NCBI GenBank assembly: GCA_963668655.2
Contig: CAXXPQ010000001.1
Coordinates: 663,318 to 727,317 of the forward strand
Direction: 5' to 3'
Length of the DNA: 64,000 nt
From: Myxococcota bacterium
Lineage (GTDB): Bacteria > Myxococcota_A > SURF-8
Made by a program: the position numbers and the translations under genes. This document shows positions 19,771 to 50,345 of the stretch, piece after piece; within the stretch, counting starts at the first letter, position 1, and every line of letters starts with the position of its first letter. Below the pieces are notes generated by a model that saw only the letters and a program-made list of their open reading frames with translations, did no database searches and was not told the origin of the DNA.

Positions 19771-19775
19771 GGCCA

Positions 19776-21416: not shown

Positions 21417-21424
21417 ACCTTGCT

Positions 21425-21453: not shown

Positions 21454-21532
21454 ACTTTGATCCTTGAAATCAAGCGGCTGGAAAGCAGGCGGACCGGCCT
21501 GCCTTTCGCCGTTTCCAGGAAGAGGTAGACTC

Positions 21533-21916
21533 ATGATTGAGATCACCAAATATCTGAGTTCGACCCAGGGCAATCGGCAGGCCAAGGCCGTCGATCCGGT
21601 GCAGAAAAGCCAGCCCACGGACAACGAGCGTCGTCAGATGGAGGATGTCACGGCCCGGAAGGAAGAGGCCAAGGCGGAAAACATGGAGATGGAGGATCTG
21701 GAGGATCTTTCGTCGAAGATCAACGAATTTTTCGAAAGCTCCAATCTCCGGTTGAATCTCTCCATCCACAAGGAGACCGATCGGGTCGTTTCGAAGCTGA
21801 TTAATCAGGAAAGCGGCGAGGTGGTGCGCGAGTTCCCCCCGAAAGAAATCCTGGACATGATCGTCAGGCTTCGTAAATTGACCGACAACGGCATTCTGGT
21901 GGACGAGCGAACCTGA
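21533..21916 (+). CDS. flaG: Flagellar protein FlaG
   Basis: The internal ATG at 21533 has a GGAAGAGG RBS. The C-terminal region (LRLNLSIHKETDRVVSKLINQESGEVVREFPPKEILDM) is typical of FlaG. It sits between fliC and fliD. Confidence 0.8.
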   Translation: MIEITKYLSSTQGNRQAKAVDPVQKSQPTDNERRQMEDVTARKEEAKAENMEMEDLEDLSSKINEFFESSNLRLNLSIHKETDRVVSKLINQESGEVVREFPPKEILDMIVRLRKLTDNGILVDERT

Positions 21917-22002
21917 AAACCGTACACCGTCCGGCCTGTTTCACGGCATCCACGCCGGTCCGGAAAAAGGCCGGTCAACCCCCATGAGACGGGAGCAACG
22001 CG

Positions 22003-25000: not shown

Positions 25001-25044
25001 AGAGCCAGGGGTCGTGGCTTTCGGCCCAGCTCTCGAACATGTAG
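22003..25044 (+). CDS. fliD: Flagellar filament cap protein FliD, unusually long (1013 aa)
   Basis: N-terminus ISGLSSGIDWRNMIDQMIAVD is FliD-like. The C-terminal coiled region (RLQLRRQTLVNQFLAMEKMMNTLQSQGSWL) is also FliD-like. The central part contains duplicated insert domains. Confidence 0.9.
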   Translation: MQYISGLSSGIDWRNMIDQMIAVDHQVVDNLTTQRSGLESKQKAWQEINTKLSALKSAAEKLRDLDNFSVFTTALSSNSSTDAEDILSAAVGSGASLGTFDVVVSQTATYEKLSSNSFDSVSDALGLSGEFLLGGQRINIAASDSLAAIRTKIENANSGDTPSSVSASIMTTSEGQYRLVLTSDDSGADGIDIRDSSATDLVQALGFTDSSTSIREATSSGALSVSFSSSDTAVSSLLNLTAAPTGTVTIGAYGGISLDLSKSLEQIKDDINAAAGASIASIVQEEGDDGDTTYQLKLVGTSYADDGNVLESLGILSGGHGSVQEVHQSDALSKSTAAGGGVIDAFTSFSQIDTGSGLNNIANGDTITLSGVDHSGNTFSDTFTITNAAGTTVGDLLTEIESLFAGAGSSVTASVDASGKITVTDDTGGDSQLSLNLVANNEGGGTLDFGEIEAVTDGRAMQVQAGRNAVLTVDGVRLERESNSVDDAIAGVTLNLAKADSSTVTVSIDRDKSEITGMANSFVKGYNSVASWIREQTKYDEETESTGGPLFGDSTLTNVQTQLLNLVINTVDGASSSLNTLAAAGISLQEDGQLELDSTKFQGYIDTDFQNLTRLFAAQGSGSIGSIEYMSYSRDTKAGAYDVNITQVAEQASATGSVDLSSGIAGAETLTLTDKVTGQVAVVEIESGWTTDAIVNAINSEMARNYTHVLTEGGAGNTIVGGGSITSSTKLNLIDTTGGGNDLSNGDRITFSGTKRNGIEVQGFFEITDVADQTVGDLLENIEQILGDEVDATIDTSGHIVITDKTSGMSQISLNLGYVGDGSLSLGSVDTSTTGRYAIDITAENDGSGHVTLRHDDYGSAAGYTVASANGFLGITSQEYVGQDVAGTINGELATGSGQVLSGNSGSNNIDGLVMKYTGTATGNVGTLSMTLGFGEDLERILYGFTDPYSGLIDAKNEGYDSSIDSINEQIDRMESRLQLRRQTLVNQFLAMEKMMNTLQSQGSWLSAQLSNM

Positions 25045-25078
25045 CGGCGGCGATGGAGATCGCGTAAAGGAGCGAACG

Positions 25079-25546
25079 ATGGCGGCGAATCCTTATTCCA
25101 AGTACAAAAAAATGCAGGTGGAAACCACCGATCCCGTACGCCTGGTGATTATGCTGTACGACGGCGCCGTCAAGGCCCTGCGGCTGGCCATGAAGTACGC
25201 GCGGGAAAAGGATTTCGAGAAAAAGGGGCGGGAAATGATGCGCGCCCACGATATTATTTTCGAACTCCTGTCCACCCTGGATCGCGAAAACGGTGGAGAG
25301 ATCGCCAAGAATCTGGAATCGCTGTATGTTTACATGCTACGCGGCATCCTGGAATCCAACGCCAGCAACGATTTCGGAAAGATGGAGGAGATCATCGGCC
25401 ATCTGGAAACCCTGAACGACGGCTGGCGCGCCCTGGCGAGGCAGCGCGGCGCGGAAACGTCGGCCGTGAACCGGGAAGAGACCGGCGGAACGAAAAAAGC
25501 GGGCACGGAAAGTCTTCTGAACGCTTACTCGGGGAAAACGTTGTGA
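25079..25546 (+). CDS. fliS: Flagellar export chaperone FliS
   Basis: AAGGAG RBS. Motifs YKKMQVETTDPVRLVIMLYDGAVKAL and IIFELLSTLD..GGEIAKNLESLYVYM are FliS-like. Confidence 0.9.
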   Translation: MAANPYSKYKKMQVETTDPVRLVIMLYDGAVKALRLAMKYAREKDFEKKGREMMRAHDIIFELLSTLDRENGGEIAKNLESLYVYMLRGILESNASNDFGKMEEIIGHLETLNDGWRALARQRGAETSAVNREETGGTKKAGTESLLNAYSGKTL

Positions 25547-30449: not shown

Positions 30450-30645
30450 CATTGAAGCCACTCCGCTGCAAAAGCCCGTTCGTCAGGTGAAATGGACGGG
30501 GAGGTCCGGGGTGTCAGGATGGCTTGACAATCAATGAAAGACGCTGAACGTCTGAATTCGCCCGCCACTCACTATCTTATTGAAATTATAGAAGTATTTT
30601 CTTGAAAAGGTGAATCGGCCAAGGCGGGCGTTTCGGCATGACTTT

Positions 30646-30654
30646 TGCTATAAT
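30646..30654 (+). promoter_or_regulatory. Extended -10 element (TGcTATAAT)
   Basis: A perfect TATAAT with an upstream TG lies ~70 nt before the ATG at 30724. The -35 is weak. Confidence 0.35.
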
Positions 30655-34842: not shown

Positions 34843-36336
34843 CTACCGGCGTTCTTCCGGAGCGTCCGGGTTCGGGAACTCCGCCGGTTCGCAGGCGGAG
34901 GCGTTTTCCATCCCCAGAAGATCTCCCAGGGAGAAGCATTTATACGGCTGCGCCGGAATGGGCACCGTTCCCGCCGCCACCCAGAACAGGAGTTTCGCCG
35001 GGTCGAACAGAACCATGTGCATGGGACCGTTGGTCCCGATTCCGGCGTTGTTGTCCACGTTGGCCTCGTTCCAGGGGGCGGAGACGCCCGTGCGCGGGTT
35101 CACCCGGTCGCGCATCACCGCGATGACCTTGGCCGGATCCAAATCTCCGTAGAGAGAGTCCTGTCCGTTCGGCGGGATCAGTTGCGAAAGCCGTTCCCAG
35201 CGCATCAGGCTGGAATCCGGATAATCCTGGCTCTGCGGCAGATCGTAATCCACCATGCCGGGATCTTCGAAGTGGTTGCTGGTGAAGACGTAGCCGTCCG
35301 TGAGCGTGCGTTCCGCCATGTGCTTGCCGGTCATTTCGAACACCGAGCCCTCCCCGGTCTCGCCGTCGGCGAACACCAGCATTTCCGAAGACATGTGCGG
35401 CTCGCCCGCCAGGAAAGCGCGCACGTCGGCCATGCTTTCGGCCGAGGCGATGATCTCGCCCAGCATCTGTGCGTGGCTGCGGCCCGTCTCGTTCTTTTCC
35501 GTGTCGTCCACCGGATCCGCCTCATGGCTGACGCCCGTGATGCCCGCCGCATTCATGCTGGTGTAAGGACTCAGATTCAGAGGGAAACCCACATACACAT
35601 GGGGCACGCCGCCCGAAGGCTGGCGCACGAAAATCACCGGGTTGGCGTGAATGATGCTGATATCCATGCCGCTCCAGTCCAGGTTGCGGGCGTGATAGAG
35701 CCGCCCGTCCGCCGTGGCGTCGCCGGAGACGATCAGGCTGGTGCAGCCCGGGCCATCGACCTCACGCCGCTTGAAGGAGGGAATGTTCTCCAGCATCACG
35801 TCGCCGAAGTTGAGGATCAGGCAATAGGTCATGGTCAACCCGGTGCCCTCGGCGGCGTCCACCAGCCCCTGGCATTCCTGCAAAAGACTCGGATAGCTGT
35901 TGGCCTCCGCCATTTCCACCAGGCCCAGGCCCTCCGCCAGGCTGGCCAGCATACGCAGTTGATTGTCCGCCTCCACGAACTCGATGGCTTCCTTGATGGT
36001 ATCGTACAGCAGTTCTCCCTGCTGATATCCCATTTCGTACGGCGTGCCGTGCAGCCAGACCACCGTAAAGCCGTTCATTTTCTCCGTGTGCGCCTCGATG
36101 TAATCCGCTTCCTCTTCCGCGTCGCCGTCCGTTTCTGCATCGCCATCGATCGCTTCCATGTCGCCGTCCATTTCGCCGTCGCCATCCGGAACCTCGGTAT
36201 CGCCGTCGGGAGATTCCGTGTCGCCGTCCACGTCCTCGTTTCCATCGTCATCGCTGCAAGCAGGCAAAAACGCCAGCGTAAGAAGCAGCAGCAGTACGCC
36301 CACGAGTTTCCAGAATGCCGGTTTGCCTGTCTTCAT
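34843..36336 (-). CDS. Peptidase C45 / Ntn-hydrolase (acyl-CoA:6-APA acyltransferase-like) lipoprotein with polyacidic tether
   Basis: Start at MKTGKP (36336). Lipobox AFLPAC. DGD/DGE spacer. Putative autoprocessing and nucleophile site GPGCTSLIVSG..RLYHARNLDW. Confidence 0.7.
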   Translation of the reverse strand: MKTGKPAFWKLVGVLLLLLTLAFLPACSDDDGNEDVDGDTESPDGDTEVPDGDGEMDGDMEAIDGDAETDGDAEEEADYIEAHTEKMNGFTVVWLHGTPYEMGYQQGELLYDTIKEAIEFVEADNQLRMLASLAEGLGLVEMAEANSYPSLLQECQGLVDAAEGTGLTMTYCLILNFGDVMLENIPSFKRREVDGPGCTSLIVSGDATADGRLYHARNLDWSGMDISIIHANPVIFVRQPSGGVPHVYVGFPLNLSPYTSMNAAGITGVSHEADPVDDTEKNETGRSHAQMLGEIIASAESMADVRAFLAGEPHMSSEMLVFADGETGEGSVFEMTGKHMAERTLTDGYVFTSNHFEDPGMVDYDLPQSQDYPDSSLMRWERLSQLIPPNGQDSLYGDLDPAKVIAVMRDRVNPRTGVSAPWNEANVDNNAGIGTNGPMHMVLFDPAKLLFWVAAGTVPIPAQPYKCFSLGDLLGMENASACEPAEFPNPDAPEERR

Positions 36337-36484
36337 GTTTTTTTCCTGCCTTCGTTGATGTGCCGTTTTCGAAATGAAATCTCTTCGCACCCATCATTAT
36401 GGCCAAACCGCGTGGTTCGTCAAGGTTCCCCCTCGTCTTCCGGATTTTTTCCATCGCATTCGCCCCGGAGAAACCATGTGTGCT

Positions 36485-36826
36485 CGGTCTGGCATGGATT
36501 TTTGCAAGCGGCACGCCTTTTGCTCCGGCATGGGGATTGCGTTCCGGTTTGTTGAATGAAATTAGCGGTTTGCAATCTTCATGCCGGTTGCAAAAGGCGT
36601 GCCGCGCCGGTTTTGCGGGAAACAACCTTGCCGCCTTCGGTATGGGTGCGGCCGAACAGACGCCGCGTTTTCGCCGGAACGGCGAAAACGCCCCCGAAAC
36701 CGTCTGTTTCGGGGGCGCGGGAACCCGCTTCGCGGATTCCCGCGCGGCGTTCGAATCTCGATCCGCTGGGAAGATTTGCGTTTTTGGGTTTCCTGCAAAA
36801 CCTCCGCAAAAACCATGCCAGACCGG
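36485..36826. repeat. Nested-palindromic intergenic element, copy A (TIRs plus sigma-54-box-like units plus triple hairpin core)
   Basis: TIR at 36485-36505 versus 36806-36825. About 88% identity over ~120 bp to 50029-50150. Hairpins at 36665-36691, 36692-36714 and 36715-36745. Confidence 0.85.
36571..36604 (-). promoter_or_regulatory. Two tandem sigma-54 -24/-12-like boxes facing the C45 lipoprotein gene
   Basis: Minus strand reads CGGCACGCCTTTTGCA then CCGGCATGAAGATTGCA. Both have GG-N10-GC with TTGC, ~225 nt upstream of the ATG at 36336. Confidence 0.3.
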
Positions 36827-36881
36827 AGGGGGTTGCATATGTTCGGGAGGGGCGGGGGGAAAGATCGCCCGTGGTTTTTTG

Positions 36882-38693
36882 CTATTTCTTCGGTTCGGAA
36901 TACATCTCTTCGATCTGGTCTTTGTAGAGTTCATTGATAATTTTGCGCTTCAGTTTCATGGTGGGAGTCAGCTCGCCCGTTTCCTGGGAGAATGAATGGT
37001 CGATCAGGCGGAATTTCTTGATCTGCTCCACCCGGGCGAACTGATCATTGTAGGCGTTGATGGCTTCTTCGTACAGTTTTTGAACTTCGGCCAGTCCGAT
37101 GAGGTCGGCATGACTCTTGAATTCCAGGTTGCGTTCCCGGGCCCAGTTGGCCAGGGCCTCGAAATCCGGGACGATGAGAGCCGAGATGAAGGGACGACCG
37201 TCCCCGATGGAAACGATGGTTTCGATGTACGGATCGATAATCATGGCGCGCTCCAGATTCTGCGGGGAGATGTTTTTCCCGCCGGCGGTGATGAAGAGTT
37301 CTTTCTTTCGATCGGTAATGGACAGAAAACCGTCGTGGATTTCTCCGATATCACCCGTCTTGAACCAGCCGTTCTCATCGAAGGTTTCGCGGGTGGCCTC
37401 GGGTTTGTTGTAGTAGCCCTTCATGACCTGCGGCCCCTTGATGAGGATTTCGCCGTCGGGAGCGATGCGGAGTTCGGTGTCCAGCACGGCTTTTCCCACG
37501 CTGCCGAAGCGGAAGTCCTTGAAGGTGTTCAGGCAGACGATGGGCGTGGTTTCGGACAGGCCATAGCCCTCGTTGATCCACAGGCCCAGGGCATGGAAAA
37601 ATTCGTTGATCTCCCGGGCCAGGGGGCCGCCGCCGGAGATGAACATCACGAGGCGATCCGCGCCGAGCCCGGTGCGGATTTTGGAAAAGATCAGGCGTTC
37701 GGCCAGTTTGTGTTGCAGGGAGAGCCAGGCGGGCAGGGATTTCCCCGTGGTGCGATAGACGGTGGCCCGTTTTCCCACTCCCAGGGCCCAGGAAAACAGC
37801 GATTTCTTCAACGGGCTGGCTTTGGCCAGTTTTTCGTGTACGCCGTTGTAGATTTTCTCGAAGAGTCTCGGCACGCTGATGAGGAAGTCGGGACGCAGTT
37901 CCTTCATGTTTTCCACGATGGTGGTGGTGTCCTCGGAATAATAGACGGTCCCGCCCAGGTAGATGGGAAAGTACCAGCCTCCGGTGCGTTCCATAGAATG
38001 GCTGAGCGGCAGGAAACTGAGCGCCATCTGACCTTCCTTGAAGATATCGCCGTAACAGTCGCTGGCCTGGTAGACGTTGGACAGGAAATTCTTATGGGTG
38101 AGCATGACGCCCTTCGGGGGGCCGGTGGTTCCGGAGGTGTAGATCAGCGTGGCCAGATCCAGGGGCGCGATGTCGTCCAGACGGCGTTCGAGTTCCTCCG
38201 GGGCGTCATGGTCTTCGCCCAGGGCGATGACGTCGTCCATGTGCAGGACGGTTTCGCCGTCCTCGACGCCCAGCCGCTCCATGGTGATGACGTGGGAAAG
38301 TCCCTCCACGCCGTCCCGGACGCTTCGGATTTTCTCGAAGTGTTCCTTTCCGGCGACGACCACCATTCTGCTTTTGGAGTCGTTCAGAATGTATTCGCAT
38401 TCCAGGGCCGAGTTGGTGGCGTAGATGGGGACGTCCACCGCGCCGCAGGAGAGGATCGCCAGGTCGGCCAGTCCCCATTCCGGACGATTGGGGCTGAAGA
38501 TGGCGGCGTGACCGCCCGGCCGGAGTCCCAGGGAGATGAGGCCGAGGGCGAAGTTTCGGACCTTGCGTTCCGCCTCGCCCCAGGTCATGGTTTTCCAGGA
38601 ACCGTTTTCCTTCCATCCCAGAAAGGGCGTCCCCGGAATTTCCGCAGCCTTGTTGAAAAACGTCTCGGGGATATGCCTTTCCTTGATGTCCAT
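36882..38693 (-). CDS. Long-chain acyl-CoA synthetase (AMP-forming, FadD/FACL-like)
   Basis: AMP-binding motif LIYTSGTTGPPKGVMLTH. Also GYGLSET and the GDIG..DG...I.DRKK region. GGAAGGAG RBS. Confidence 0.85.
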   Translation of the reverse strand: MDIKERHIPETFFNKAAEIPGTPFLGWKENGSWKTMTWGEAERKVRNFALGLISLGLRPGGHAAIFSPNRPEWGLADLAILSCGAVDVPIYATNSALECEYILNDSKSRMVVVAGKEHFEKIRSVRDGVEGLSHVITMERLGVEDGETVLHMDDVIALGEDHDAPEELERRLDDIAPLDLATLIYTSGTTGPPKGVMLTHKNFLSNVYQASDCYGDIFKEGQMALSFLPLSHSMERTGGWYFPIYLGGTVYYSEDTTTIVENMKELRPDFLISVPRLFEKIYNGVHEKLAKASPLKKSLFSWALGVGKRATVYRTTGKSLPAWLSLQHKLAERLIFSKIRTGLGADRLVMFISGGGPLAREINEFFHALGLWINEGYGLSETTPIVCLNTFKDFRFGSVGKAVLDTELRIAPDGEILIKGPQVMKGYYNKPEATRETFDENGWFKTGDIGEIHDGFLSITDRKKELFITAGGKNISPQNLERAMIIDPYIETIVSIGDGRPFISALIVPDFEALANWARERNLEFKSHADLIGLAEVQKLYEEAINAYNDQFARVEQIKKFRLIDHSFSQETGELTPTMKLKRKIINELYKDQIEEMYSEPKK

Positions 38694-38754: not shown

Positions 38755-41700
38755 TCAAGGGGCCGTGCAGTCCGTCAGGCAGATACAGGTTCCTTCTCCA
38801 TCCACAAAGGGGATCCGACCTTCCCAGCAGGTCTGTCCCACGTCGCAAAGCGGCGTCCCCGGCGAGGATTCCTGGCAGGCATCGTCCAGGCAGACGTGAT
38901 GGCCTTCCGCGCCGCAGCAGCGTTCGCCGCCGTTGCAGGCGCCGTCGTCCCCCCAACCGTTTCCCGCAAGAATCTGTTCCATCGGATCGCAGGTGACGCC
39001 CGGATCTTCGCAGACCGGAGGGTTGTGATTCCAGGGTTCGCAGTAGCCGCCGTCGTCTCCCGCCACGCCGCCTGGGTAGGCCACGCAGGCCCACTGGGGT
39101 TCCGTGTCGTCCCGGGTTTCGTCGGCGGGATCGGCGGGACAGTCCGCCGCCCCCAGCGTACAACCCGCCACGCAGCGGGCCGAGATCTCCCCTTCCACGC
39201 AGATATCGCCTTCGGTCGCACAGGCCGAGGGATCCAGCGGATCGCAGACGGGCAGGGCGTCCCACCAGGAGAGGAAGGTTTCCGCGACATGGCTCTGCTT
39301 GCGGCAATAGCCCGTTTCGAACAGGGAGACGCCGAATTCGTCGGCCTGGATGTGCGGCATGCAGGTGAAGCCGTCGTCGCATTCGTGGGGCAGAGGCGTG
39401 CAGGGAATGCGGCATTCCCGGAAGACGGCCTGCCCCTGCACGCGGTCCACGCAGACGCCGTCTCCAAGGAAGGGATGGCGGACGCTCAGTTCGAACGGCC
39501 CGCCGTGGATGCGGCCGCCTTCCTTCAATCCGTCCACGATCACGCAGTAACTCCCCGGGATGAGTCGCAATTCCTCCAGCCGCGGGCTGAAGCCCATGAA
39601 GCCGTCGTCGCAGGCCAGGGGCTCCGAGTCGGCGTCGTCGCAGGGGCCGCTCCAGACCTCCAGCGCGGCCTTGAATGCGGCGGAAACGCGCAGATCCACC
39701 TGGACGGTTTTCGGGACGGTCAGTTCGAACATCTGATCCGGGCTGCCGCCGGTTACGGCGCAGCTTAAAGAAACCTTGTCCGTACGTCCGGAGGTGTCGC
39801 CCGCCGCCCAGACACCGGCGGTATAATCCAGGTCGGACAGGATCGTGGCGCGGTCGGCGCGTTCTCCGTCTCGCGGTCCGGCGAAGGCCGCCCGCATGGA
39901 GAGCGACGCGGCCAGGATTTCCGCCGTTTTCCCGGTCTGGTTGTCTACGACCAGCCGCCAGGTTCCGGCGGCGTGGACGTTCTCCAGGCGGTCCAGGTTT
40001 CCCGGCGTGCTGATGGCGGGCAGGGCGAGGGAAAGCCGCCAGCCGGTTTCTCCTTGGGCGGCCGCGCCGCTGTCGCCTCCCGGCCAGGAGCGGAAGTCGG
40101 AGAATCCGCCGATGGCGAGTTCGGTTCCGTCCGGCGCGACGAGGGTTAGATCCAGCGAGGACGCGGGCGATTCCGCGAACTCGACGGCGAACAGGAGCCC
40201 CAGGTCCAGCACGTCCAGGGCGGGAAGATGCAGGGAGAAGGTGTTTTCTCCCGAAAACAGCGGCGTACTGACGGGTTCCAGGAAATCGTACTTCTGGGCG
40301 GCGGCGCTTCCGGCGGGGTTGGGGATCATGCGGACCTCGGTCCGGTTGCCCGGGTCGTCGGTGAAAAGCAGCACGTCCCTGCGGCCGTCGCCGTTCGCGT
40401 CGAACAGCCGCAGGCCGGTGGCCCAGCCGTCCCCGGCGTCGTAGGTGGCCTGGGGGCCGAAGGATCCGTTCGACTGTATCAGACGCACGGCCAGGCGCAG
40501 GCGCGGCGGGCCGGTGGCGACCGAAGGAAAGACCACGAGGAGATCGTCCAGACCGTCGCCGTTCATGTCCGCCCATTCGAAAAAGACCTTTCCCAAAAGG
40601 CCCTCCATGGCGAAGGCGACGGGTTCGGCCGTTTCGGTGAACGCGCCCATGCCGTCTCCCGTAAAGATCCGCAGAAGATTCTGGGACGTGCGAACCGCCA
40701 GGTCTTTCAGGCCGTCGCGATTCAGATAGCCCACGCGCACGGAGGCTCCGTCCAGATCCTCCGGCCCCACGGGAAATTCGTCGATGCCTTCCTCGGAGGC
40801 GGCATGGCCGTACAGGCGGCCGTCGTCCGCCAGGACCAGGAGATCCGAGCGGCCATCCGCGGTCAGGTCCGCCGAATGCAGTTCGAGGATGCTGCGTTCG
40901 CTGAAGTCCATGGGGGAGGCGAAGGTGCCGTCTCCCTGGGAAATGAGGATGGCGTCTCCCAAAGCGAGATCCCCCAGGCCGTCATCGTCGAAGTCTCCGT
41001 GCAGCACGGCCAGCGTGTCGATGGCGAGCATTATGCCCGTGTCGATGCCTGCGTCGAAGGATCCGTCTCCCGTTCCGGGAAAAACGGTGAGGTACGCTTC
41101 GGGGCCGCCCGTTCGCGTGTGGACCAGGGCCAGGTCGAGCAGACCGTCCACGTAGAAATCTCCCACCACGAGCCGTCCGGCTTGTACGTCCGTCAGATCG
41201 ATCTGTCCGATGAGGCGTGTGTCGGGCGGGACGGAGGAGGGCGGGACTTCGCGGATCTCGATGCGTTCTCCATCGACGAGCCAGGCCATGTCCGCACGGC
41301 CGTCGTTATCGAAGTCGCCGAGCACGGCGTCCTGAATCGCGTCGTTGCCGAACACGGAGCTTTGGAAGGGCGCGCTCCGGCCCTCCATGCGGCCGTCCAG
41401 GAACACGGTGCGGACGCCGGAATCCTCCGCTTGCAGGGCGGCCAGTTCCAGAAGGCCGTCGCGGTTGGCGTCCGTGAGAAGGAAATCGGAAATGTGCTTG
41501 TCCTCGCCGATGCCGGAGTTTTCTATGATATTGGAGAGGGCGAAAACGCCGTTGCCCTTTCCCGGATACCACAGGAAGCGGGCCGGCGCGCCCGGTGTGC
41601 TCATGGCCAGAAGATCGAGGCGTCCGTCGCCGTCGAAATCGGCCACGGTGAGGGCTTCCGCCGGCAGTTCCAGGGTTTTCGCTTCCACGCTTCGGAAACG

Positions 41701-44700
41701 GCCGCCGCCGTCGGAAAGGAACGTGACCAGTCGATCGGGATTCGCCGCCGATCGCGCCAGGAGGTCCGGAGCGCCGTCGAAATTGAGATCCCCGACGAAC
41801 AGGAGGCGCACGGGTTCGGTCAGCGTCAAGGCGGCGTAGCTCATTCGCAGCACGCCGTTTTCCGCCTCCACGCCCAGATACCAGCCCAGCACCGCGTCCG
41901 GGGAACTCATGGCGATGTCCGGCTTCCCGTCCCCATTGAAGTCCGCCGCCAGGTAATCGAGCGCATCGAATTCCGGTGGATTATCGCCGTGAACTTCCTC
42001 GAAAGCGCCAGGGACGAAAGAACCGTCCGCCCGGTTCACGTACCAGGCCGGGCGGCGATTCACGGCATCGTGAACCAGGATGTCCGGGCGTTTGTCGCCG
42101 TTGAAGTCCGCGATGGCCAGGATATCCGTCTGCCAGCCGAGATCTTCCACGAGCCGGCCGTTTTCCGGGCTCGAAGCGCCGTAAAAGACCGCGCCCGCGC
42201 CCGTTACCAGATCCCGATAGCCGTCGCCGTCCAGATCGGAAACGGCGAGCGTGCGCACCGGGTCGGAGAACGATACCGCCGGATCGAGCACGGAAAACGG
42301 CTGCACCTCGTCCGCAAGCGTGTTGTCGGAGCGGGGTTCGTAGAGCGTCACGGTGGAAAGATCCGCCGCCCAGGCCGCTAGTTCGGGCAGGAAATCCCCT
42401 TGAATGTCGCCGGTTTCGAGATGTTGCAGGGTTTCCGCGTGGGCCTGTCCGAAGGCGTTCGGATGAAAATGCCCGCTCTGACGGCCCAGCGAGGAAAGAT
42501 CCGTAAAAGCCTTCGCCGGTCCCGGAGAGCTTTCCAGTTCGAACCCGGAAAGGGGCGTGCCCAGGGGCAGGCCCAGGGCATGGGGGCCGCCCGGATAGCT
42601 CCCGGCGGGACGGGTCGCCGTGCGTTCGTCCGATGTCCACTGAGAGAGGCGCACGTGGGTTTCGGGATCGGAGACGTAGACGCCCGCGGAAGCCCGTATC
42701 TCTGCGGAATCCGGGAACTCGCCGGAATCCCAGGGACTTTCGAAGCGTTTGCGGATTCTGGCCGGATCGCGGGCGATACGGTTCGTGGCGTCCAGACGGT
42801 TTTCCATCACGTCGTCGCCGTTGGCGTCTTGAACGGATTCCACCCGGTGATTGACGGCGAAGGGGCGGGCGCTCTGCCCGCCGCCCGGCGCGGCGTTGAC
42901 CACCGCGAGGTCGTAGGGGGCATCCGCCGCCGGAAGCGCAAAATCGGGGAAGCGCGCCAAAAGAATCCAGGAGGTGGGGCCGCCGGATTCCGAGCCCTCG
43001 GCCTCCGGATCGGGCAAGAGGCGCAGCACCTCGCCTTCCGTCGAATCGATCTGAATACGGGCGTTGTCCATGAAGCGGAAGCCCTCTACCCATACGAAAA
43101 GATCCTGTGAAATCGGGAGATTCTGCTCGTCCAGCCGTTCGACGGCATAGGATTGCGGCAGGAAAGGCCGCACGCAGGCGGACAGGTCTCCTGCCCCACA
43201 AGCCAGGCGCAGTTCGTCCAGCAGCTGTTCGGCTCCCGACGGACAGGTTTCGATGGCGGCCGTGCAGTTCTCCGGGAAGGTTTCGCAGGCCCAGAACTCC
43301 CGGCGACAGGCCTCGGGCAGCCAGGCGATGGCCTGTCTGGATTCGAAGTCCAAGGCCGTGACGGCGGTGATTTCCGGAGCCGGAGCCACGACGTGCAGGA
43401 AGTCCGTCTCCTCCGAAACGCCCGTGGATTCCACGGGTTCCGGGGTGACGACCCGCACCGGATAGGAACCGGTGGCGCGCATCAGCGGGTGGGTGTCCGC
43501 CAGAACCAGGCGGCAGCAGTTGATGCAGTCGGGGGGCACGCCGTCTTCCGCCGCCGGGCAACTTACGGCGTCGCTTTCCGCCGCCGTGCAGGCCATTCCG
43601 TTGACCGTGCCGGAAAGCCCGCAATCCATCATCAACTCGAAATCCCCTATCCGTGCCCGGGTGCCGTATTCCGGATGGCCGGGAGCCCCGGAGACGAAGT
43701 TCCAGCCGAAAATCGTCAGATCCGTCAGGCCGTTTTCGGAGTTCATGGCCACTACGGAGCCGGGCGAAACATGAGAGAGCGCCGGGACGGGACGCGTGCT
43801 CTGGGGTACGTCCAGAAGTTCAAGATGGAACTCTCCGATGGCCGGAACGTGCGTATCGGGAAGTTCGCTGCCGTTCTGCGCCCGGTCGAAAAAGCGGAAA
43901 TACAGGATTTTTTCTCCGGGTTCACCTTCCAGGGAAAGCGAGACGCCGGACGTGGCCGGGATGCAGTCCGCGTCGATGGGGGAACAGTTTCCCATGTCGC
44001 TTCGGTTCTGGGATACCTTGAAATAGGCCGTATCCGCGTCCGATTCCCGGATTTCCACCTGGACCACGGCGGAGGACACCGGAACGGGCGTTTCTCCCTC
44101 GGACCAGGATTCTCCGTTCACGCGCAGGCGGCCCAGGCCGGGGGGCGTGGTGTCCGCCTCCACGACATCGAAAAAGCCCGGCGAGACGTTGCCGGCTGCG
44201 TCCTTCAGAAAAGCGGAAACCGTGTTCAGCGCGTTGGGGTTTTTCAACTCCAGATCCAGCGGAAAATTCGTCAGCGCGACCGTTCGTTCTCCGTCCGCCA
44301 GATCGCCGCGCAGCACCGCCTTCAGACCGGTTTCGGCGCTCTGAACGTTTACGGAAACCGTCGCCGTGTTCACCAGATCCGCTCCTCCGGCCAGGGTGAG
44401 CGTTCCCGCGACGGGGGGGACGGTGTCCAGAGATATCTCGTTTTTGCTTTGCAAGGCCGCCGGGGTGACGTTTCCGGCATTGTCCCGGGCGCAGATCCAC
44501 AACGAGCGCAAGCCTTGTATGCCGGAAATGACGGTTCCGAAACGGCCGTCTTCCGGAAGCGTACGGTACTCGCCATGGGCGCAGTCGAAATCCGTTTCCG
44601 AAACGGCCACGCCGGCCACGCCCGACAGCGCGTCGGTGGCGTCCACATGCACGTCCACCATGGGACTGCTCGCCATTTCCCCCGCCGCTCCTCCGTTCAG

Positions 44701-45921
44701 CGTGCAGCTGACCTCCGGCGAGGTATGGTCCCACACCAGGGTTTGCTGCCGGGGTTCCGATTCATGGCCCGCCACGTCCGAGCACTTGACGGAGATCGTA
44801 TACTCGTTTTCGCCGTCGGCGAGCGTGAACGCCAGGTCGGGTTTGTAGGCCAGCCGTTGCCAGGCCGCCGAACCGATGCGCAGCCAGGCGTACGTCGCGG
44901 GTCCGGCCTCGTCCACGCAGGACAGCGAGAGAGCCACCAGACCTTCGGCGGTGTTCAGATAGCCGCTGCCGTTTCCCAGCACGACGTCCGCCAACACCGG
45001 GGGCTGACTGTCGGAAACCACCGTTTCGACCATGATTTCGGATTCGAAGCCGCAGGCGTCCGCGAACTGAATCCGCACGGTGTTCGTGCCTTCGGAAAGT
45101 CCGGAAAGATCCAGGTCGCCTTCACCGTCGAAGTCTCCGTAATCCGGGGTGTTTTCTCCGATCCAGATGCGCGCCCGGTTGGCGAAGGCCGCCTTGGCGT
45201 GAAAACGGATGTTTGCTTCGTCCACATACCAGAGACCTTCGTGAAGCGTCGCCTCCACGGCGTCCAGTTTTACGGTCTCGCCGTTCAGCGTGAAGGTCGG
45301 GCCGTCTACGTGGTGCCCGTTCCAGGCCACGACCACTTCCCGTCCCGAACAGGCCGCGTCCAGCAGGTCCGGTCCGATGGCCGAAAGGGAATACGCGCCC
45401 ACCGGCACGTTGGAGAAGACGTACTCGTTCTCGGCGTTCGGCTGCGTTTCCTGGCTTACCGCGCCCAGAAGCTTCACGGAAACCGAGGACGGCGCCACGC
45501 CTTGGGGAAGAATCAGGCTTCCCGTTACCGATCCGACGCCGGTTTTCAGAACGATATCGCCAAGATGGATGGCGTCGCCCGCTTCCAGGACCACGGAGGC
45601 GGCATAGGTGTTATAGGCCGATCCCTCGGCGTTGGCGACCAACCCGCCGCTGTAGGCGATGCTTATTTCGTAGGTCTTGGCTTCCAGGTCCGCGAAGCGG
45701 AACGCACCGTCCGCCTCCGGGGCGACGCTCTCGCCCTGTCCGATATCGATACTCACTCGTGAGATGTCGTTCAGGCCTTCCATATTCGAAAGGACCACCC
45801 GACCCTGGAGGCTGCCCGTGGTTTCCCGTGGTGTTTCGGTTTCGTCCCCGGAACACCCGGCGATCCAGAGAACAGGAAGAAAACCTACGGCCAGAATCAC
45901 CGCCCAAAAACGTTTCCGCAT
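38755..45921 (-). CDS. Giant FG-GAP/VCBS-repeat surface lipoprotein (2388 aa) with CarboxypepD_reg-like, Ig/IPT-like, P-domain-like, PPC-like and Cys-rich C-terminal regions
   Basis: Start at MRKRFWAVILAVGFLPVLWIAGC (45921, AAGGAG RBS). About 13-14 repeats of the D-x-[DN]-x-D-G-x-x-D-[LI] type (DLDGDGYRDLV, DFNGDGKPDIA, DMNGDGLDDLL...). GTWRLVVDN is P-domain-like. Confidence 0.85.
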   Translation of the reverse strand: MRKRFWAVILAVGFLPVLWIAGCSGDETETPRETTGSLQGRVVLSNMEGLNDISRVSIDIGQGESVAPEADGAFRFADLEAKTYEISIAYSGGLVANAEGSAYNTYAASVVLEAGDAIHLGDIVLKTGVGSVTGSLILPQGVAPSSVSVKLLGAVSQETQPNAENEYVFSNVPVGAYSLSAIGPDLLDAACSGREVVVAWNGHHVDGPTFTLNGETVKLDAVEATLHEGLWYVDEANIRFHAKAAFANRARIWIGENTPDYGDFDGEGDLDLSGLSEGTNTVRIQFADACGFESEIMVETVVSDSQPPVLADVVLGNGSGYLNTAEGLVALSLSCVDEAGPATYAWLRIGSAAWQRLAYKPDLAFTLADGENEYTISVKCSDVAGHESEPRQQTLVWDHTSPEVSCTLNGGAAGEMASSPMVDVHVDATDALSGVAGVAVSETDFDCAHGEYRTLPEDGRFGTVISGIQGLRSLWICARDNAGNVTPAALQSKNEISLDTVPPVAGTLTLAGGADLVNTATVSVNVQSAETGLKAVLRGDLADGERTVALTNFPLDLELKNPNALNTVSAFLKDAAGNVSPGFFDVVEADTTPPGLGRLRVNGESWSEGETPVPVSSAVVQVEIRESDADTAYFKVSQNRSDMGNCSPIDADCIPATSGVSLSLEGEPGEKILYFRFFDRAQNGSELPDTHVPAIGEFHLELLDVPQSTRPVPALSHVSPGSVVAMNSENGLTDLTIFGWNFVSGAPGHPEYGTRARIGDFELMMDCGLSGTVNGMACTAAESDAVSCPAAEDGVPPDCINCCRLVLADTHPLMRATGSYPVRVVTPEPVESTGVSEETDFLHVVAPAPEITAVTALDFESRQAIAWLPEACRREFWACETFPENCTAAIETCPSGAEQLLDELRLACGAGDLSACVRPFLPQSYAVERLDEQNLPISQDLFVWVEGFRFMDNARIQIDSTEGEVLRLLPDPEAEGSESGGPTSWILLARFPDFALPAADAPYDLAVVNAAPGGGQSARPFAVNHRVESVQDANGDDVMENRLDATNRIARDPARIRKRFESPWDSGEFPDSAEIRASAGVYVSDPETHVRLSQWTSDERTATRPAGSYPGGPHALGLPLGTPLSGFELESSPGPAKAFTDLSSLGRQSGHFHPNAFGQAHAETLQHLETGDIQGDFLPELAAWAADLSTVTLYEPRSDNTLADEVQPFSVLDPAVSFSDPVRTLAVSDLDGDGYRDLVTGAGAVFYGASSPENGRLVEDLGWQTDILAIADFNGDKRPDILVHDAVNRRPAWYVNRADGSFVPGAFEEVHGDNPPEFDALDYLAADFNGDGKPDIAMSSPDAVLGWYLGVEAENGVLRMSYAALTLTEPVRLLFVGDLNFDGAPDLLARSAANPDRLVTFLSDGGGRFRSVEAKTLELPAEALTVADFDGDGRLDLLAMSTPGAPARFLWYPGKGNGVFALSNIIENSGIGEDKHISDFLLTDANRDGLLELAALQAEDSGVRTVFLDGRMEGRSAPFQSSVFGNDAIQDAVLGDFDNDGRADMAWLVDGERIEIREVPPSSVPPDTRLIGQIDLTDVQAGRLVVGDFYVDGLLDLALVHTRTGGPEAYLTVFPGTGDGSFDAGIDTGIMLAIDTLAVLHGDFDDDGLGDLALGDAILISQGDGTFASPMDFSERSILELHSADLTADGRSDLLVLADDGRLYGHAASEEGIDEFPVGPEDLDGASVRVGYLNRDGLKDLAVRTSQNLLRIFTGDGMGAFTETAEPVAFAMEGLLGKVFFEWADMNGDGLDDLLVVFPSVATGPPRLRLAVRLIQSNGSFGPQATYDAGDGWATGLRLFDANGDGRRDVLLFTDDPGNRTEVRMIPNPAGSAAAQKYDFLEPVSTPLFSGENTFSLHLPALDVLDLGLLFAVEFAESPASSLDLTLVAPDGTELAIGGFSDFRSWPGGDSGAAAQGETGWRLSLALPAISTPGNLDRLENVHAAGTWRLVVDNQTGKTAEILAASLSMRAAFAGPRDGERADRATILSDLDYTAGVWAAGDTSGRTDKVSLSCAVTGGSPDQMFELTVPKTVQVDLRVSAAFKAALEVWSGPCDDADSEPLACDDGFMGFSPRLEELRLIPGSYCVIVDGLKEGGRIHGGPFELSVRHPFLGDGVCVDRVQGQAVFRECRIPCTPLPHECDDGFTCMPHIQADEFGVSLFETGYCRKQSHVAETFLSWWDALPVCDPLDPSACATEGDICVEGEISARCVAGCTLGAADCPADPADETRDDTEPQWACVAYPGGVAGDDGGYCEPWNHNPPVCEDPGVTCDPMEQILAGNGWGDDGACNGGERCCGAEGHHVCLDDACQESSPGTPLCDVGQTCWEGRIPFVDGEGTCICLTDCTAP

Positions 45922-46288
45922 GTAAGGCTCCTTGATCGCGGCGCGCCGCCGCCGAATGGGCGGAACGACCGAACGTATATTTTGTTCTGGCGACCGGTAC
46001 TGCGTCGAATACATGGATTTTAGACGAAAAGTCGGAAAAGTCAATTCGTTACGCAAGCTTCGGGATGATTCCCCCGGGCGTCTCCCCGGGATTCCCCGGC
46101 GGCGAGGTTCCGTCCGGAGGGAGGTCGGCGACGTGCGATTCGGTTCGGCTTCCGAAATTCTTTTCGGATGATTATCGTCGGTTTCCGTCTCTAATTCCTT
46201 TACAGTTTCCCGGTCGCCGTGTTTGAATGCAAAGTGCAACTTGGACGTGGGACGGAAAAGACCTGGGAACGACAAGGAGAAACGGCGC

Positions 46289-48241
46289 TTGTGCGGAATC
46301 GCGGGCATGGTGGGCAGGGGAAGACCTGCGGAGGAAATCCGGGAAACGCTTCGTGAAATGGGCCGGGTTCAGGCCCATCGGGGGCCGGACGATCGCCGGG
46401 AATGCGTCTATGATTACGGGAATGTTTCCATAGGATTCGGTTTCGTGCGCCTTTCGATCCTGGATCTCGAAACCGGCATGCAGCCCATCCGGGCCGAGGC
46501 CGACGATACCGCCATTATCTGCAATGGACAGATCTACAATCACCCGGAATTGAAAGAGAAACTCGCGGGCGAGATCTTCCGGACCCGGGGCGACGTGGAA
46601 ACCGCCCTGCATTTATATCGCCGGAAAGGCATCGATTTCCTTCAGGATCTGAACGGCATGTACGCGGGTGCGATTTTCGATCCCCGGCGCGGGCGGTTGT
46701 TTCTGTTCCGAGATCGTTTCGGCATCAAGCCGCTGTATTATGCCGAGCAGGGCGGACGGTTTTATTTTTCCTCCGAAATCAAGCCTTTGCTCGCCGCCGG
46801 GATCGAGGCCCGTCCAGGCACGGATCGATTGGCGGAATGGTTCACTTACCGCTATTTACCCGGCGGAAACACCCTGTTTTCCGGCATCCGCAAACTTCCG
46901 CCCGGTTCGTACCTGGACATGAATCTTCGGGACGGATCCTGGAAAATCGTGCGATATTGGGAACTTCGCTTCGGCGAAGGAGATTCGTCCCTCTCCGAGG
47001 ACGAAGCCGCCGATGAAATCGCGCGGCTGTTTTCCGACGCCGTGCGCATCCGGCTGCGTTCCGACGTAGAGGTGGGATCGCTGCTCTCCGGGGGGATCGA
47101 TTCTTCCGCCGTGGCGTCCAAGGCGGCGGAATTCCAACCTGATTTACGGCTCTTCACCATCGGCTTCGAGGAACGGAAATACGACGAATCCGCCGACGTG
47201 CGTGCTTTTCTTGCCGCCGATCCCATGCGTTTCGGCCGTGCCCGTCCGGAAACTCGGCTTTGTGCGCGGGAGGCGCTTCACGACCTGCCCGAACTGGTCC
47301 GGGCGGTGGAGGAACCCATCGTCCTGGCCGCCATGCTGCCCACGGACCGGGTTTGTCATCTGGCGTCCGACCGGGTGAAGGTGGCGCTCACCGGGGAAGG
47401 CGCGGATGAAATCTTTGCCGGATACCGAAAATTCATGCTGGAGATGGCCGCAGGAGCCTTCAAAAACGCCTCCGAAACGGAACGGGAAGCGCTTTTGCGG
47501 GATTATCCCGAACTGGTCGCCTACCTGCCGAGACGCCACCCGGATCCGGCGCGGCGCTACATTCAGAGCGAGGCTTTGTTTGCGCCCGAAGAACTGGCGC
47601 GGCTCCTGAATCGAGAGATCACGGAGGCTTTACCACCGGAAGAGGCTCTTCCCGTTCTGCGCGGCGACGAGCATCCCCTGGACGCCATGCAGGCCATGGA
47701 GTGCCGCTTCCGCCTGCCGGATTACGTGATTTTACGCCTGGACAAACTTTCCATGCGCCACTCCCTGGAGACACGCACCCCGTTTCTGGATTATCGCCTG
47801 GCGGAGTTCGCGGCAGGACTTCCCGACCGGTACAAAGCCAATCTTCCGGAAAGACGGGAGAAAAACATTCTTCGACGCGCCTTCCGGCGGGCGGGAATTT
47901 TGAACGAAGGCGGCGCTTTGCGTCCCAAACAGCTTTTCACCGCGCCGCTGGCCCGCTGGCTGTCCGATCCCGATCCCCGAAACCGGCCGGACTTCCTGCG
48001 GGAGATCCTGGAAGGAGACGAGATTCATCGGCAGGGAATTCTGGATCCCGGCATGGTGAAGGAACTGGCCGCCTCGATCCGAACGCAAACCGTGGGTCCG
48101 GAAACCCTGGTGAGTTCCGCCGACCAGGTGTTCGGCGTGGTGATTTTTACCTTATGGAACCGCATTTTCATGGAGACGACGGCCGGAACGATATCTAAGC
48201 GAAAACGCAATGTTGGAAATTACGCAAACGAACGGAAGTGA
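46289..48241 (+). CDS. Asparagine synthase (glutamine-hydrolysing) family amidotransferase
   Basis: The TTG start is immediately followed by Cys (M-CGIAGM), as required for the Ntn amidotransferase nucleophile. AAGGAG lies 9 nt upstream. PP-loop SGGIDSS. Confidence 0.85.
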   Translation: MCGIAGMVGRGRPAEEIRETLREMGRVQAHRGPDDRRECVYDYGNVSIGFGFVRLSILDLETGMQPIRAEADDTAIICNGQIYNHPELKEKLAGEIFRTRGDVETALHLYRRKGIDFLQDLNGMYAGAIFDPRRGRLFLFRDRFGIKPLYYAEQGGRFYFSSEIKPLLAAGIEARPGTDRLAEWFTYRYLPGGNTLFSGIRKLPPGSYLDMNLRDGSWKIVRYWELRFGEGDSSLSEDEAADEIARLFSDAVRIRLRSDVEVGSLLSGGIDSSAVASKAAEFQPDLRLFTIGFEERKYDESADVRAFLAADPMRFGRARPETRLCAREALHDLPELVRAVEEPIVLAAMLPTDRVCHLASDRVKVALTGEGADEIFAGYRKFMLEMAAGAFKNASETEREALLRDYPELVAYLPRRHPDPARRYIQSEALFAPEELARLLNREITEALPPEEALPVLRGDEHPLDAMQAMECRFRLPDYVILRLDKLSMRHSLETRTPFLDYRLAEFAAGLPDRYKANLPERREKNILRRAFRRAGILNEGGALRPKQLFTAPLARWLSDPDPRNRPDFLREILEGDEIHRQGILDPGMVKELAASIRTQTVGPETLVSSADQVFGVVIFTLWNRIFMETTAGTISKRKRNVGNYANERK

Positions 48242-49469: not shown

Positions 49470-49868
49470 TTACGGACTCTTGAATCCGCAACGCTCCTCG
49501 ATTTCCTCGCAGGCCGAGCCCACCAGGCAGGCGGCCATTCCTACCGTAATCGCGCCCTCGTCCTCGCAAGTCAGAAAACAGTCCGCCAGCCATGAATCCG
49601 CCAACAACTCGCTTCCGCCATGAAAGGAACGATCGCATTCCCGGAACTTGATGCAGGCCGCCCGACACAGGCGTTTGCCGGCCGGTTCCGCCGATCCCGC
49701 GCCGTCGTCCGTCAGATTGTAATTCTCGCTGACATAGGAGCACTTGCAGTCTTCGTCGTCGCAACCTCCCGGACAATCGCACTGCCGATCCATCGTACTG
49801 CCGGACAGGATCAGTGTCGCCAACGTCACGATCATGCCCATGGATATGGTTTGCATTCGCCGTTTCAT
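49470..49868 (-). CDS. Small secreted cysteine-rich protein (132 aa, 12 Cys)
   Basis: GGAGGTG RBS before the ATG at 49868 (MKRRMQTISMGMIVTLATLILSG...). The rest of ORF 49470..50276 is intergenic repeat sequence. Confidence 0.6.
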   Translation of the reverse strand: MKRRMQTISMGMIVTLATLILSGSTMDRQCDCPGGCDDEDCKCSYVSENYNLTDDGAGSAEPAGKRLCRAACIKFRECDRSFHGGSELLADSWLADCFLTCEDEGAITVGMAACLVGSACEEIEERCGFKSP

Positions 49869-50028
49869 GGTCACCTCCGCGAAAGAAAAAACTGCTTTCC
49901 ATCGCCAGTATACCACTGAAATCCGCCCGTGGCACGATTCGAATTTCCCCGTCAGCCATTCCCCCGAACTCACGGCCGATCTGCGGGTCGGGCCCGGAAC
50001 GTCCGTTCGAGCACGGCCCCGGCCGCCC

Positions 50029-50286
50029 CGGTCTGGCATGGTTTTTGCTCCGGCACGCCTTTTGCTCCGGCATGCGGATTGCGTTCCGGTTATTGTAATG
50101 AAATCAATGGTTTGCAATCTCCATGCCGGTTGCAAAAGGCGCGCCGGACAGCCCGGATCACGTGAAAACCGTTCGGATAAAAGTCGTCTCCCGGCGCTTT
50201 CTTTCCGCCCGGAAAGCGCCGGGAAATCCCTGCGATTCCAAGCGGTTTTCGCGCGAACGGGCTTGCAAAAACCCATGCCAGACCGG
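50029..50286. repeat. Nested-palindromic intergenic element, copy B
   Basis: TIR CCGGTCTGGCATGGTTTTTGC (50029-50048) versus GCAAAAACCCATGCCAGACCGG (50265-50286). Left module aligns to copy A. Core 12-bp hairpin at 50190-50223. Confidence 0.85.
50113..50146 (-). promoter_or_regulatory. Tandem sigma-54 -24/-12-like boxes facing the small Cys-rich protein gene
   Basis: Minus strand reads CGGCGCGCCTTTTGCA then CCGGCATGGAGATTGCA, ~235 nt upstream of the ATG at 49868. Confidence 0.3.
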
Positions 50287-50345
50287 GGCGGCCGGGGATT
50301 GGAGGAAGGGGGCGATTGCGGAGGAACCCGTGACTTTCGGCGCGT

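Follow-up and report, generated by a model that had tools for sequence, protein, structure and literature searches.

The 342-bp non-coding element described here (element A), one of two copies found in the 64-kb stretch of DNA that we analysed (the window), is best described as an array of sigma-54 (−24/−12) promoter boxes packed as a foldback repeat, and it fails defining tests of each repeat family with which we compared it. It carries six boxes of the form GGCAYG-N4-TTGC, three per strand and every one directed inward. Our preferred interpretation, held tentatively and at somewhat less than even confidence, is that the element is a dispersed MITE-like cassette that binds sigma-54 holoenzyme or acts as a promoter for it, and that has a terminator arm built in. 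The analysis covered two copies in the one 64-kb window, and the functional statements made below were inferred from sequence.

Anatomy of element A and its second copy

The spacer between the two minus-strand genes that flank element A was 545 bp long (36337-36881), and the element occupied positions 36485-36826 within it. The length and the non-coding nature given in the preliminary description were borne out; the indels that separate the two copies break the frame, and a coding sequence was rejected. The terminal inverted repeats lay where they had been placed, at 36485-36505 and 36806-36825, and were complementary at 94% over 18 nt, or over 21/20 nt with a 1-nt indel. The left ~120 bp had been described as itself a long inverted repeat, and so it proved: 36508-36523 paired with 36590-36605 at 16 of 16 positions and 36525-36540 with 36572-36587 at 88%, forming an inner palindrome of 100 bp with arms at 36508-36541 and 36571-36605. 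All six RpoN-type units claimed for the element were recovered, five with exact GG-N10-GC spacing, the exception being box 1 with N11. Tandem boxes were offset by 17-18 bp. A Y preceded GG in every box, a W followed GC in most, and four carried a T-tract before GC, as strong binders of sigma-54 typically do, S. meliloti nifH for example. The sigma-54 −24/−12 consensus is reportedly mrNrYTGGCACGrNNNTTGCWNNw (Barrios et al. 1999); the pattern TGGCAYG-N4-TTGCW with GG-N10-GC spacing was present in five of the six boxes of A and exactly in four of those of copy B. To the right of the inner palindrome, the three abutting hairpins reported at 36665-36745 were present, and the first had the 12-bp stem claimed for it; however, the stems measured 12, 12 and 14 bp rather than 12, 9 and 9, and the third was imperfect. 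The coordinates of all features are collected in Table 1.

Table 1. Positions of the element, its copy and neighbouring features in the window
Feature	Position	Strand	Description
Lone box	30634-30649		Precedes a gene for a 1324-aa lipoprotein, with 75 nt to its ATG; a normal position for a sigma-54 promoter
Downstream gene of A	34843..36336	-	C45/AAT-family lipoprotein; signal peptide and lipobox
Sigma-70-type promoter of A's downstream gene	36396..36423	-	TTGACG-16-CATAAT; 61 bp beyond the element's left repeat
Left terminal inverted repeat	36485..36506	+	Contains box 1
Box 1, TGGCATGGATTTTTGCA	36490-36506	+	GG-N11-GC, one base over canonical spacing
Box 2, CGGCACGCCTTTTGCT	36509..36524	+	Canonical spacing; T-tract precedes GC
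Box 3, CGGCATGGGGATTGCG	36526..36541	+	Innermost plus box, facing the AT-rich loop
AT-rich loop between arms	36542..36570	.	Core AATGAAAT also kept in copy B
Box 4, CGGCATGAAGATTGCA	36571..36586	-	Innermost minus box, aimed at the downstream gene; inferred start ~36560
Box 5, CGGCACGCCTTTTGCA	36589..36604	-	Exact mirror of box 2
Variable arm, element A	36606..36804	.	Three abutting hairpins, 36665-36691, 36689-36717 and 36715-36745
Hairpin 1, element A	36665-36676/36680-36691		12-bp stem, perfect
Hairpin 2, element A	36689-36700/36706-36717		12-bp stem, perfect
Hairpin 3, element A	36715-36728/36732-36745		14-bp stem, 13/14 paired
Terminator-like hairpin	36685..36717	-	12-bp GC-rich stem, 5-nt loop, TTTT
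Right terminal inverted repeat	36805..36825	-	Contains box 6
Box 6, TGGCATGGTTTTTGCG	36805-36820	-	Canonical spacing
Upstream gene of A	36882..38693	-	Long-chain acyl-CoA ligase; stop codon 56 nt from the right repeat
Gene downstream of B	49470..49868	-	Small Cys-rich protein, signal-peptide-like N-terminus
Sigma-70-type promoter by B	49907..49935	-	GTGCCA-17-TATACT with TG extension; between copy B and the downstream gene
Copy B	50029..50286	+	Same orientation as A; 258 bp
Copy B plus-strand boxes	50034-50049, 50051-50066, 50068-50083	+	
Copy B minus-strand boxes	50113-50128; 50131-50146; 50264-50280	-	Second a GGCGCG variant; third with N11 spacing
Copy B variable foldback arm	50148-50264		117 bp; hairpin at 50189-50224

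A search for further copies found a second one in the window, at 50029-50286 (copy B). The left 120 bp, comprising boxes 1-5 and the loop, was 88% identical between A and B and the right terminal repeat with box 6 was conserved, and the flanking DNA of the two was unrelated. The copies differed by two single-base indels and by a non-homologous middle. Their middle arms (199 bp in A, 117 bp in B) showed no sequence relation to each other, and both were self-complementary (z = −7.1 in A and −8.2 in B); the preliminary description mentioned neither that the variable arm is itself a conserved foldback nor that it contains a terminator-like hairpin for the upstream gene. Taken whole, each element folded as a single Y (A, z = −13.8; B, z = −12.7), with the plus strand slightly ahead in stability in both copies. 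Comparison of pairing in arm 1 showed one two-sided change that kept its pair (G-C in A, C-G in B, at the base of the arm) and two changes that broke theirs. The flanks of copy B lengthened its palindrome by 12 nt on each side, and together they make up a perfect 24-bp palindrome about the insertion point. The loop of B at 50102-50114, AATCAATGGTTTG, was an exact match to the IHF consensus WATCAANNNNTTR, from which copy A departed at two positions. Not all boxes were intact, since box 1 of A and box 6 of B had N11 spacing, which is predicted to be non-functional, and box 5 of B had GGCGCG, a weakened −24 element.

The proposal that the element is a REPIN/MITE-like disperser held in part. Dispersal was supported by the two copies with unrelated flanks and by the absence of the element upstream of orthologues, and some features of a MITE were found in the terminal inverted repeats (21 nt, and 33 nt in B), the small sizes (342 and 258 bp) and the lack of coding content. 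A strict REPIN was rejected, the boxes being 16 nt long without internal complementarity and no IS200/RAYT-like gene being present in the 64-kb window, and no target-site duplication was found: no direct repeat flanks A or B, and the flanks of B are inverted, not direct. The partner genes that the preliminary description had in view were likewise missing from the window, which held neither rpoN nor a gene for an enhancer-binding protein (no Sigma54_activat or GAFTGA signature), and no transposase or recombinase gene. A retron msr/msd was rejected, there being no reverse transcriptase and the downstream genes encoding the C45 lipoprotein and the orphan Cys-rich protein, as was an integron attC, there being neither core sites nor a cassette array. 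Rfam searches at gathering and E-value thresholds gave no gathering-level match, only generic hairpins (miRNA precursor) at 18-26 bits. BLAST of the element against plasmids and an element-specific pattern run against IMG/VR gave no match, no known IS element was matched, and no homologue of the element was present in the loci that we retrieved. The part of the literature that was covered held no account of clustered or tandem sigma-54 promoter arrays, sigma-54-bearing MITEs, decoys or phage sigma-54 arrays.

Constraint on the boxes and box arrays elsewhere

The preliminary description had argued that six near-consensus boxes in so short an element were unlikely to arise by chance, and the counts agreed. 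The exact motif GGCAYG-N4-TTGC occurred 10 times on the two strands of the 64-kb window, compared with 0.32 ± 0.63 times after shuffling, and none of 100 shuffles reached 10. Five of these occurrences were in element A, four in copy B and one at 30635, and a weighted motif scan of the window gave the same picture. From the position of the lone box at 30634-30649, the motif appears to be in use as a promoter by the organism. All three box-associated genes encode exported proteins.

To see where the two copies had diverged, we compared them position by position. One of 50 box-critical positions differed between A and B (n = 2 copies), as against 7 of 40 other arm positions (Fisher p = 0.02); for all the remaining module positions taken together the figure was 14 of 71 (p = 0.004). 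When the three box classes (1/6, 2/5 and 3/4) were compared with one another, the N4 spacer and the flanks varied and GGCAYG and TTGC were invariant. We concluded from the single box-critical change and the invariance across classes that the boxes are the constrained feature.

Close-set boxes also occurred outside the window. A three-box pattern (+ + −) was found in metagenomes at four loci, which had no sequence similarity to the element and held more boxes than the pattern required, up to 8-9; one of them (L111) is a phage, with terminase, portal, endonuclease VII, holin and lysozyme. A scan of IMG/VR for three same-strand boxes recovered 105 viral contigs, falling into 55 nucleotide-level clusters, whereas the reversed motif recovered 0 and the scrambled motif 5. 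The phage arrays contained 3-17 boxes, mostly 25-29 nt apart and frequently on both strands, and at positions outside the search pattern their boxes had Y at −1 and R after CAYG, as in the extended RpoN consensus. In one phage (L124) the array separated a replication module running leftward from a structural module running rightward, a placement that would be expected of promoters. By crude ORF calls, the direction of one-directional arrays agreed with that of the neighbouring gene in ~14 cases and disagreed in 11. No cultured relatives of the array phages were found by nucleotide search; the nearest relative by primase was Roseobacter phage CRP-125, from which the array is absent.

Scanning of genomes for two tandem boxes used a pattern that was over-general, most of the listed matches being coding or simple tandem repeats, some of them in phyla without sigma-54, and no homologue of the element was among the matches listed. 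In at least 12 species of Halomonadaceae, two tandem boxes 18 nt apart immediately preceded rpoN, with a sigma-70-like promoter beside them. Negative autoregulation of rpoN is known from P. putida, B. japonicum and R. etli, and the Halomonadaceae pair fits such autoregulation. The conservation of these tandem pairs upstream of rpoN argues that close box pairs are maintained for binding, and the pairs together with the phage and metagenome arrays indicate that close-set sigma-54 boxes are maintained in nature, in both promoter-like and operator-like settings.

Neighbouring genes, proposed mechanism and alternatives

In both copies a sigma-70-type promoter, absent from the preliminary description, separated the element from the gene downstream, at a distance of 62-94 bp from the nearest box that was not fixed. 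Orthologues of the C45 lipoprotein in Myxococcales-like MAGs (L116-L120; 54-59% identity) had short upstream regions (100-330 bp) that kept a TTGAC(T/G)...CATAAT-type promoter, and no sigma-54 boxes were found upstream of these orthologues. As the orthologues have the sigma-70 promoter and lack the boxes, we concluded that the promoter is ancestral and that the cassette, which lies upstream of it, was added specifically in this lineage. The nearest homologue of the ligase was only 63% identical, and the locus was not syntenic. The gene upstream of copy B encodes a short-chain dehydrogenase; a homologue search with the gene downstream of copy B found none, leaving it an orphan. A PKS/NRPS context was ruled out, the giant neighbouring genes encoding FG-GAP and TPR proteins.

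Between the upstream stop codon and the element there was no hairpin in either A (56 nt) or B (59 nt). On the sense strand, a stem and T-run were present within the variable arm, in A a 12-bp GC stem followed by TTTT (36717-36685) and in B a 13-bp stem with TTTT six bases on; in a terminator scan both hairpins fell below the scanner's stricter T-run threshold. Given the lack of a hairpin before the element and the stem and T-run in the arm, the arm probably supplies termination, and in A the ligase transcript from upstream probably stops at the arm's hairpin.

We propose that a non-coding cassette of 260-340 bp, now in at least two copies, was gained by this lineage between co-directional genes, and that it would behave as a MITE-like dispersed repeat. 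Its selected feature would be the six −24/−12 boxes, to which sigma-54 holoenzyme would bind; by the names of its homologues the organism belongs among Myxococcota-like deltaproteobacteria, which are heavy users of sigma-54. Of the six boxes, 3 and 4 alone are followed by an AT-rich stretch that melts easily. These two face each other, and sigma-54 promoter geometry would place the start from box 3 at ~36552, ~8 bp from that of box 4 at ~36560. Because the two initiation regions overlap, only one box would fire at a time and the promoters would be mutually exclusive; similarly, because adjacent boxes are 17-18 bp apart, holoenzymes would not occupy neighbours simultaneously. Box 4, with box 5 behind it, would read toward the downstream exported-protein gene through a leader of ~225 nt in both copies, and would thereby place an activator-gated sigma-54 input ~225 nt upstream of the start codon, atop the ancestral sigma-70 promoter. 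Boxes 1-3 may give antisense or short transcripts, or polymerase may merely be held there; a transcript from box 3 would pass into the terminator arm and then run antisense to the upstream gene. The hairpins of the variable arm would end the upstream transcript and keep each gene insulated from its neighbour.

Several features of the locus stand against this cassette interpretation. The minus-strand boxes 4-6, although aimed at the downstream gene, are 235-485 nt from its ATG with the sigma-70 promoter intervening, which is farther than the lone box at 30634 is from its gene, and the other half of the boxes (1-3) are aimed away from any gene. The 17-18-bp crowding would be too tight for two holoenzymes at once. 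Box quality is uneven, and not every box has been maintained. Finally, rpoN, activator, transposase and recombinase genes are all absent from the 64-kb window, and there is no target-site duplication.

Alternatively, the boxes may not fire at all. Inward, overlapping boxes are ill-suited to productive initiation, and the module has neither an enhancer-binding protein gene nor an obvious conserved upstream activator site, as might be expected of a sink for sigma-54 or its holoenzyme, an operator or an insulator, in which non-firing closed complexes would block read-through or antisense transcription between the neighbours, or would sense the level of sigma-54. The Halomonadaceae pairs, in which tandem boxes 18 nt apart precede rpoN beside a sigma-70-like promoter, are in keeping with such a role, and sigma-54 has been found to repress where its site overlaps another promoter (PMC4591121). 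We nevertheless consider this explanation rather unlikely: between the sigma-70 promoters and the nearest box there are 62-94 bp, a variable distance that makes direct occlusion unlikely, in E. coli no roadblock effect was seen at intragenic sigma-54 sites that occur singly (PMC4591121), and two copies are too few for titrating a sigma factor. Nor, in our judgement, are we likely to be dealing with a selfish foldback repeat (MITE, REPIN or PATE-like) whose units are transposase or recombinase sites, or duplication leftovers, with a coincidental likeness to sigma-54 boxes. Such a repeat would account for the terminal inverted repeats, the complete self-complementarity (z about −13), the small size and the lack of coding content, for the two copies with unrelated flanks and the absence of the element from orthologous loci, and for the palindrome that the flanks of copy B form around its insertion point. 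It would not account for interiors that are wholly different between the copies, and neither a target-site duplication nor, in the window, a transposase gene is present. Coincidence also fares poorly with the boxes, as a random 17-nt unit would hold the 10-position sigma-54 motif ~6e-5 of the time, the variation among the three box classes spares precisely the sigma-54-critical positions, and the T-tract before GC and the Y before GG match the RpoN consensus as well.

The extensive pairing might instead belong to RNA. A read-through or sigma-54-driven transcript folding as a three-way junction could act as a 3'-end stabiliser, as an RNase III site that uncouples the genes, or as the source of a small RNA from the variable arm, and this would suit the near-complete folding of both copies, variable arms that stay closed foldbacks despite their unrelated sequence (z = −7.1 and −8.2), the slightly stabler plus strand in both, the ~108-nt RNA that box 6 of A with the hairpin and U4 would produce, and the pairing-preserving change at the base of arm 1. 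However, two other differences in that arm disrupt pairs, and the count of one versus two is too small to use; a DNA palindrome gives the same folds on either strand, so that folding energy does not discriminate. Moreover, box 6 of B has the spacing predicted to be non-functional, no Rfam match rose above noise, and the constraint tracks box positions, not pairs, and we regard a structured RNA as decidedly unlikely. In both copies inverted repeats of 21-33 bp surround an asymmetric segment of 220-300 bp upstream of exported-protein genes, and the left repeat of A resembles the right repeat of B in its extra base and the AAG that follows. An invertible promoter switch, in which a recombinase flips the segment between the repeats and so sets either the promoter module or the terminator arm beside the downstream surface-protein gene, would have this form, but with no recombinase gene in the window, with A and B in the same orientation, and with inversion leaving unexplained why the repeats are sigma-54 boxes, it is very improbable.

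Sigma-54 promoters are usually described as single sites awaiting an activator. A broader generalisation, which we put forward as speculation and think doubtful in its full extent, would make dense sigma-54 box arrays a class of regulatory DNA that has not yet been described, landing pads that offer the holoenzyme many sites: here a dispersed foldback cassette that installs mutually exclusive, activator-gated, face-to-face promoters and a terminator, and in more than 100 phage genomes control regions that capture or sequester the host sigma-54 polymerase. If it were true, a spreading foldback cassette that multiplies boxes would connect genes to the sigma-54 regulon by a new route, and could also be a new means of insulating neighbouring genes. 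The strong enrichment of box arrays in phages raises the question of whether they make use of the host's sigma-54 polymerase or titrate it; flagella, pili and stress responses, which are under sigma-54 control, all matter for infection.

Comparison with known systems

Among small dispersed repeats, the Correia repeat-enclosed elements of Neisseria and other MITEs, as they are generally described, resemble the element in being small, non-coding and intergenic, with terminal inverted repeats and unrelated flanks among copies, in a central IHF-type site, present in one copy of the element, and in the potential for promoters and for RNA hairpins or terminators. The element differs from them in having no sequence similarity, no TA or other target duplication, sigma-54 rather than sigma-70 promoters, a variable interior, and two known copies. 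With REPIN/BIME repeats (RIP elements of proteobacteria), as generally described, it shares an arm 1 made of two inverted ~35-nt units around a short spacer, which in copy B includes an IHF consensus, and a location past a gene's 3' end where both neighbours run in the same direction. In contrast to theirs, however, its units are not short palindromes and lack a GTAG-type 5' motif, and no RAYT gene is present in the window.

Coliphages 186 and P2 have face-to-face promoter switches (Shearwin et al. 2005, as cited in PMC4591121) that are comparable in that the innermost boxes of the element are convergent and, their initiation regions overlapping, would be mutually exclusive. The phage switches use sigma-70 promoters at least 60 bp apart with genes on both sides, whereas the element has a gene to serve in one direction only. 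Sigma-54 boxes that serve as operators, in rpoN negative autoregulation and in the occlusion of overlapping promoters (PMC4591121 and, as quoted there, its references 27 and 31), offer a likeness in closely spaced boxes near a sigma-70 promoter. The boxes in the window differ in that they do not overlap the sigma-70 promoters, number six rather than two, and are set in a foldback that is not beside rpoN.

Ordinarily, a sigma-54 promoter consists of one box, placed 30-150 nt ahead of a gene. The element, in contrast, has no recognisable activator site beside its boxes and presents six of them at 17-18-bp offsets, on both strands, facing inward and far from the start codon. Box by box, however, the likeness to sigma-54 −24/−12 promoters is close: all fit GGCAYG-N4-TTGC, the base ahead of GG is always Y, and the base after GC is W in most.

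Surroundings and edges of the two copies in the window

Each of the two foldback elements, copy A and copy B, has upstream of it a giant ORF encoding a repeat protein, which places both copies at the downstream limit of operon-like blocks that begin with these ORFs. The Cys-rich protein encoded downstream of copy B had no homologue other than itself among 5.8 billion proteins. At copy B the inverted repeat extends 12 nt into the flanks (50017-50028, CCCCGGCCGCCC, and 50287-50298, GGGCGGCCGGGG), and the site without the element would be a perfect 24-bp palindrome; either the terminal repeat is longer, or the element was inserted at the centre of a palindrome. Just outside the left repeat of copy A, window positions 36465-36478 (CCGGAGAAACCATG) agree at 12 of 14 positions with the inner portion of the right repeat (CCGCAAAAACCATG); this similarity could be accidental or could mark a solo repeat that has decayed.

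The window also contains a lone canonical sigma-54 box (the RpoN-type −24/−12 unit), preceded by an AT-rich stretch and followed 75 nt downstream by the start codon (ATG, 30724) of a gene for a 1324-aa lipoprotein in which no Pfam domain was found. This box is probably an ordinary sigma-54 promoter. Upstream of the flagellin genes of the flagellar filament cluster, in which fliD is unusually long (1013 aa), there was no sigma-54 box.

Coordinates of genes, boxes and box arrays
Feature	Location	Strand	Description
Lone sigma-54 box	window 30634-30649	+	CGGCATGACTTTTGCT
Flagellar filament cluster	window 18613-25546	+	tandem pair of flagellin genes followed by flaG, fliD, fliS
Giant ORF upstream of copy A	window 38755-46308	-	2517 aa, FG-GAP repeats
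Gene downstream of copy B	window 49470-49868	-	132-aa Cys-rich protein, signal-peptide-like N-terminus
Giant ORF upstream of copy B	window 53057-63955	-	3632 aa, TPR repeats
Phage array	L111:8482-8724
Tandem array, Paenibacillus wenxiniae	L023:120-475		16 copies of TGGCACATGTATTGCA-like units
Tandem array	L107:5194-5260		four copies, last ~45 nt before an ATG
Tandem array	L042:2844-3003
Tandem box pair, example	L024:1641-1672

Box arrays in phage, bacterial and metagenome DNA

Scanning IMG/VR, we found arrays of sigma-54-type boxes on 105 phage contigs (L121-L225), which group into 55 sequence clusters, whereas scans with two control motifs yielded 0 and 5 matches. The arrays contain 3-17 boxes, for the most part at intervals of 25-29 nt, and many have boxes on both strands; flanking positions outside the selected pattern agree with the extended RpoN consensus. 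In one contig (L124) the array lies between divergent modules, with replication on one side and structural genes on the other. No GAFTGA-type activator was found in 827 kb of phage array loci, and we found no description of such arrays in the literature searched.

In bacterial genomes, near-consensus boxes form long tandem arrays that run in a single direction (L023, L107 and L042). Immediately 5′ of a three-box cluster on a 1-kb metagenome contig, about 50 bp are enclosed by a perfect inverted repeat of 25 bp (CCGGCTAAGTAGCTGAAATCATTGG...; L113, ~620-720).

Tandem boxes upstream of rpoN in Halomonadaceae

In at least 12 Halomonadaceae species (L005, L009, L014, L021, L024, L028, L038, L054, L062, L069, L070 and L073), rpoN is directly preceded by two conserved tandem sigma-54 boxes, 18 nt apart, followed by a sigma-70-like promoter, TTGCA...TAGGGT; for L024, Pfam confirmed the ORF 3′ of the pair as sigma-54. 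These box pairs look like an autoregulatory operator.
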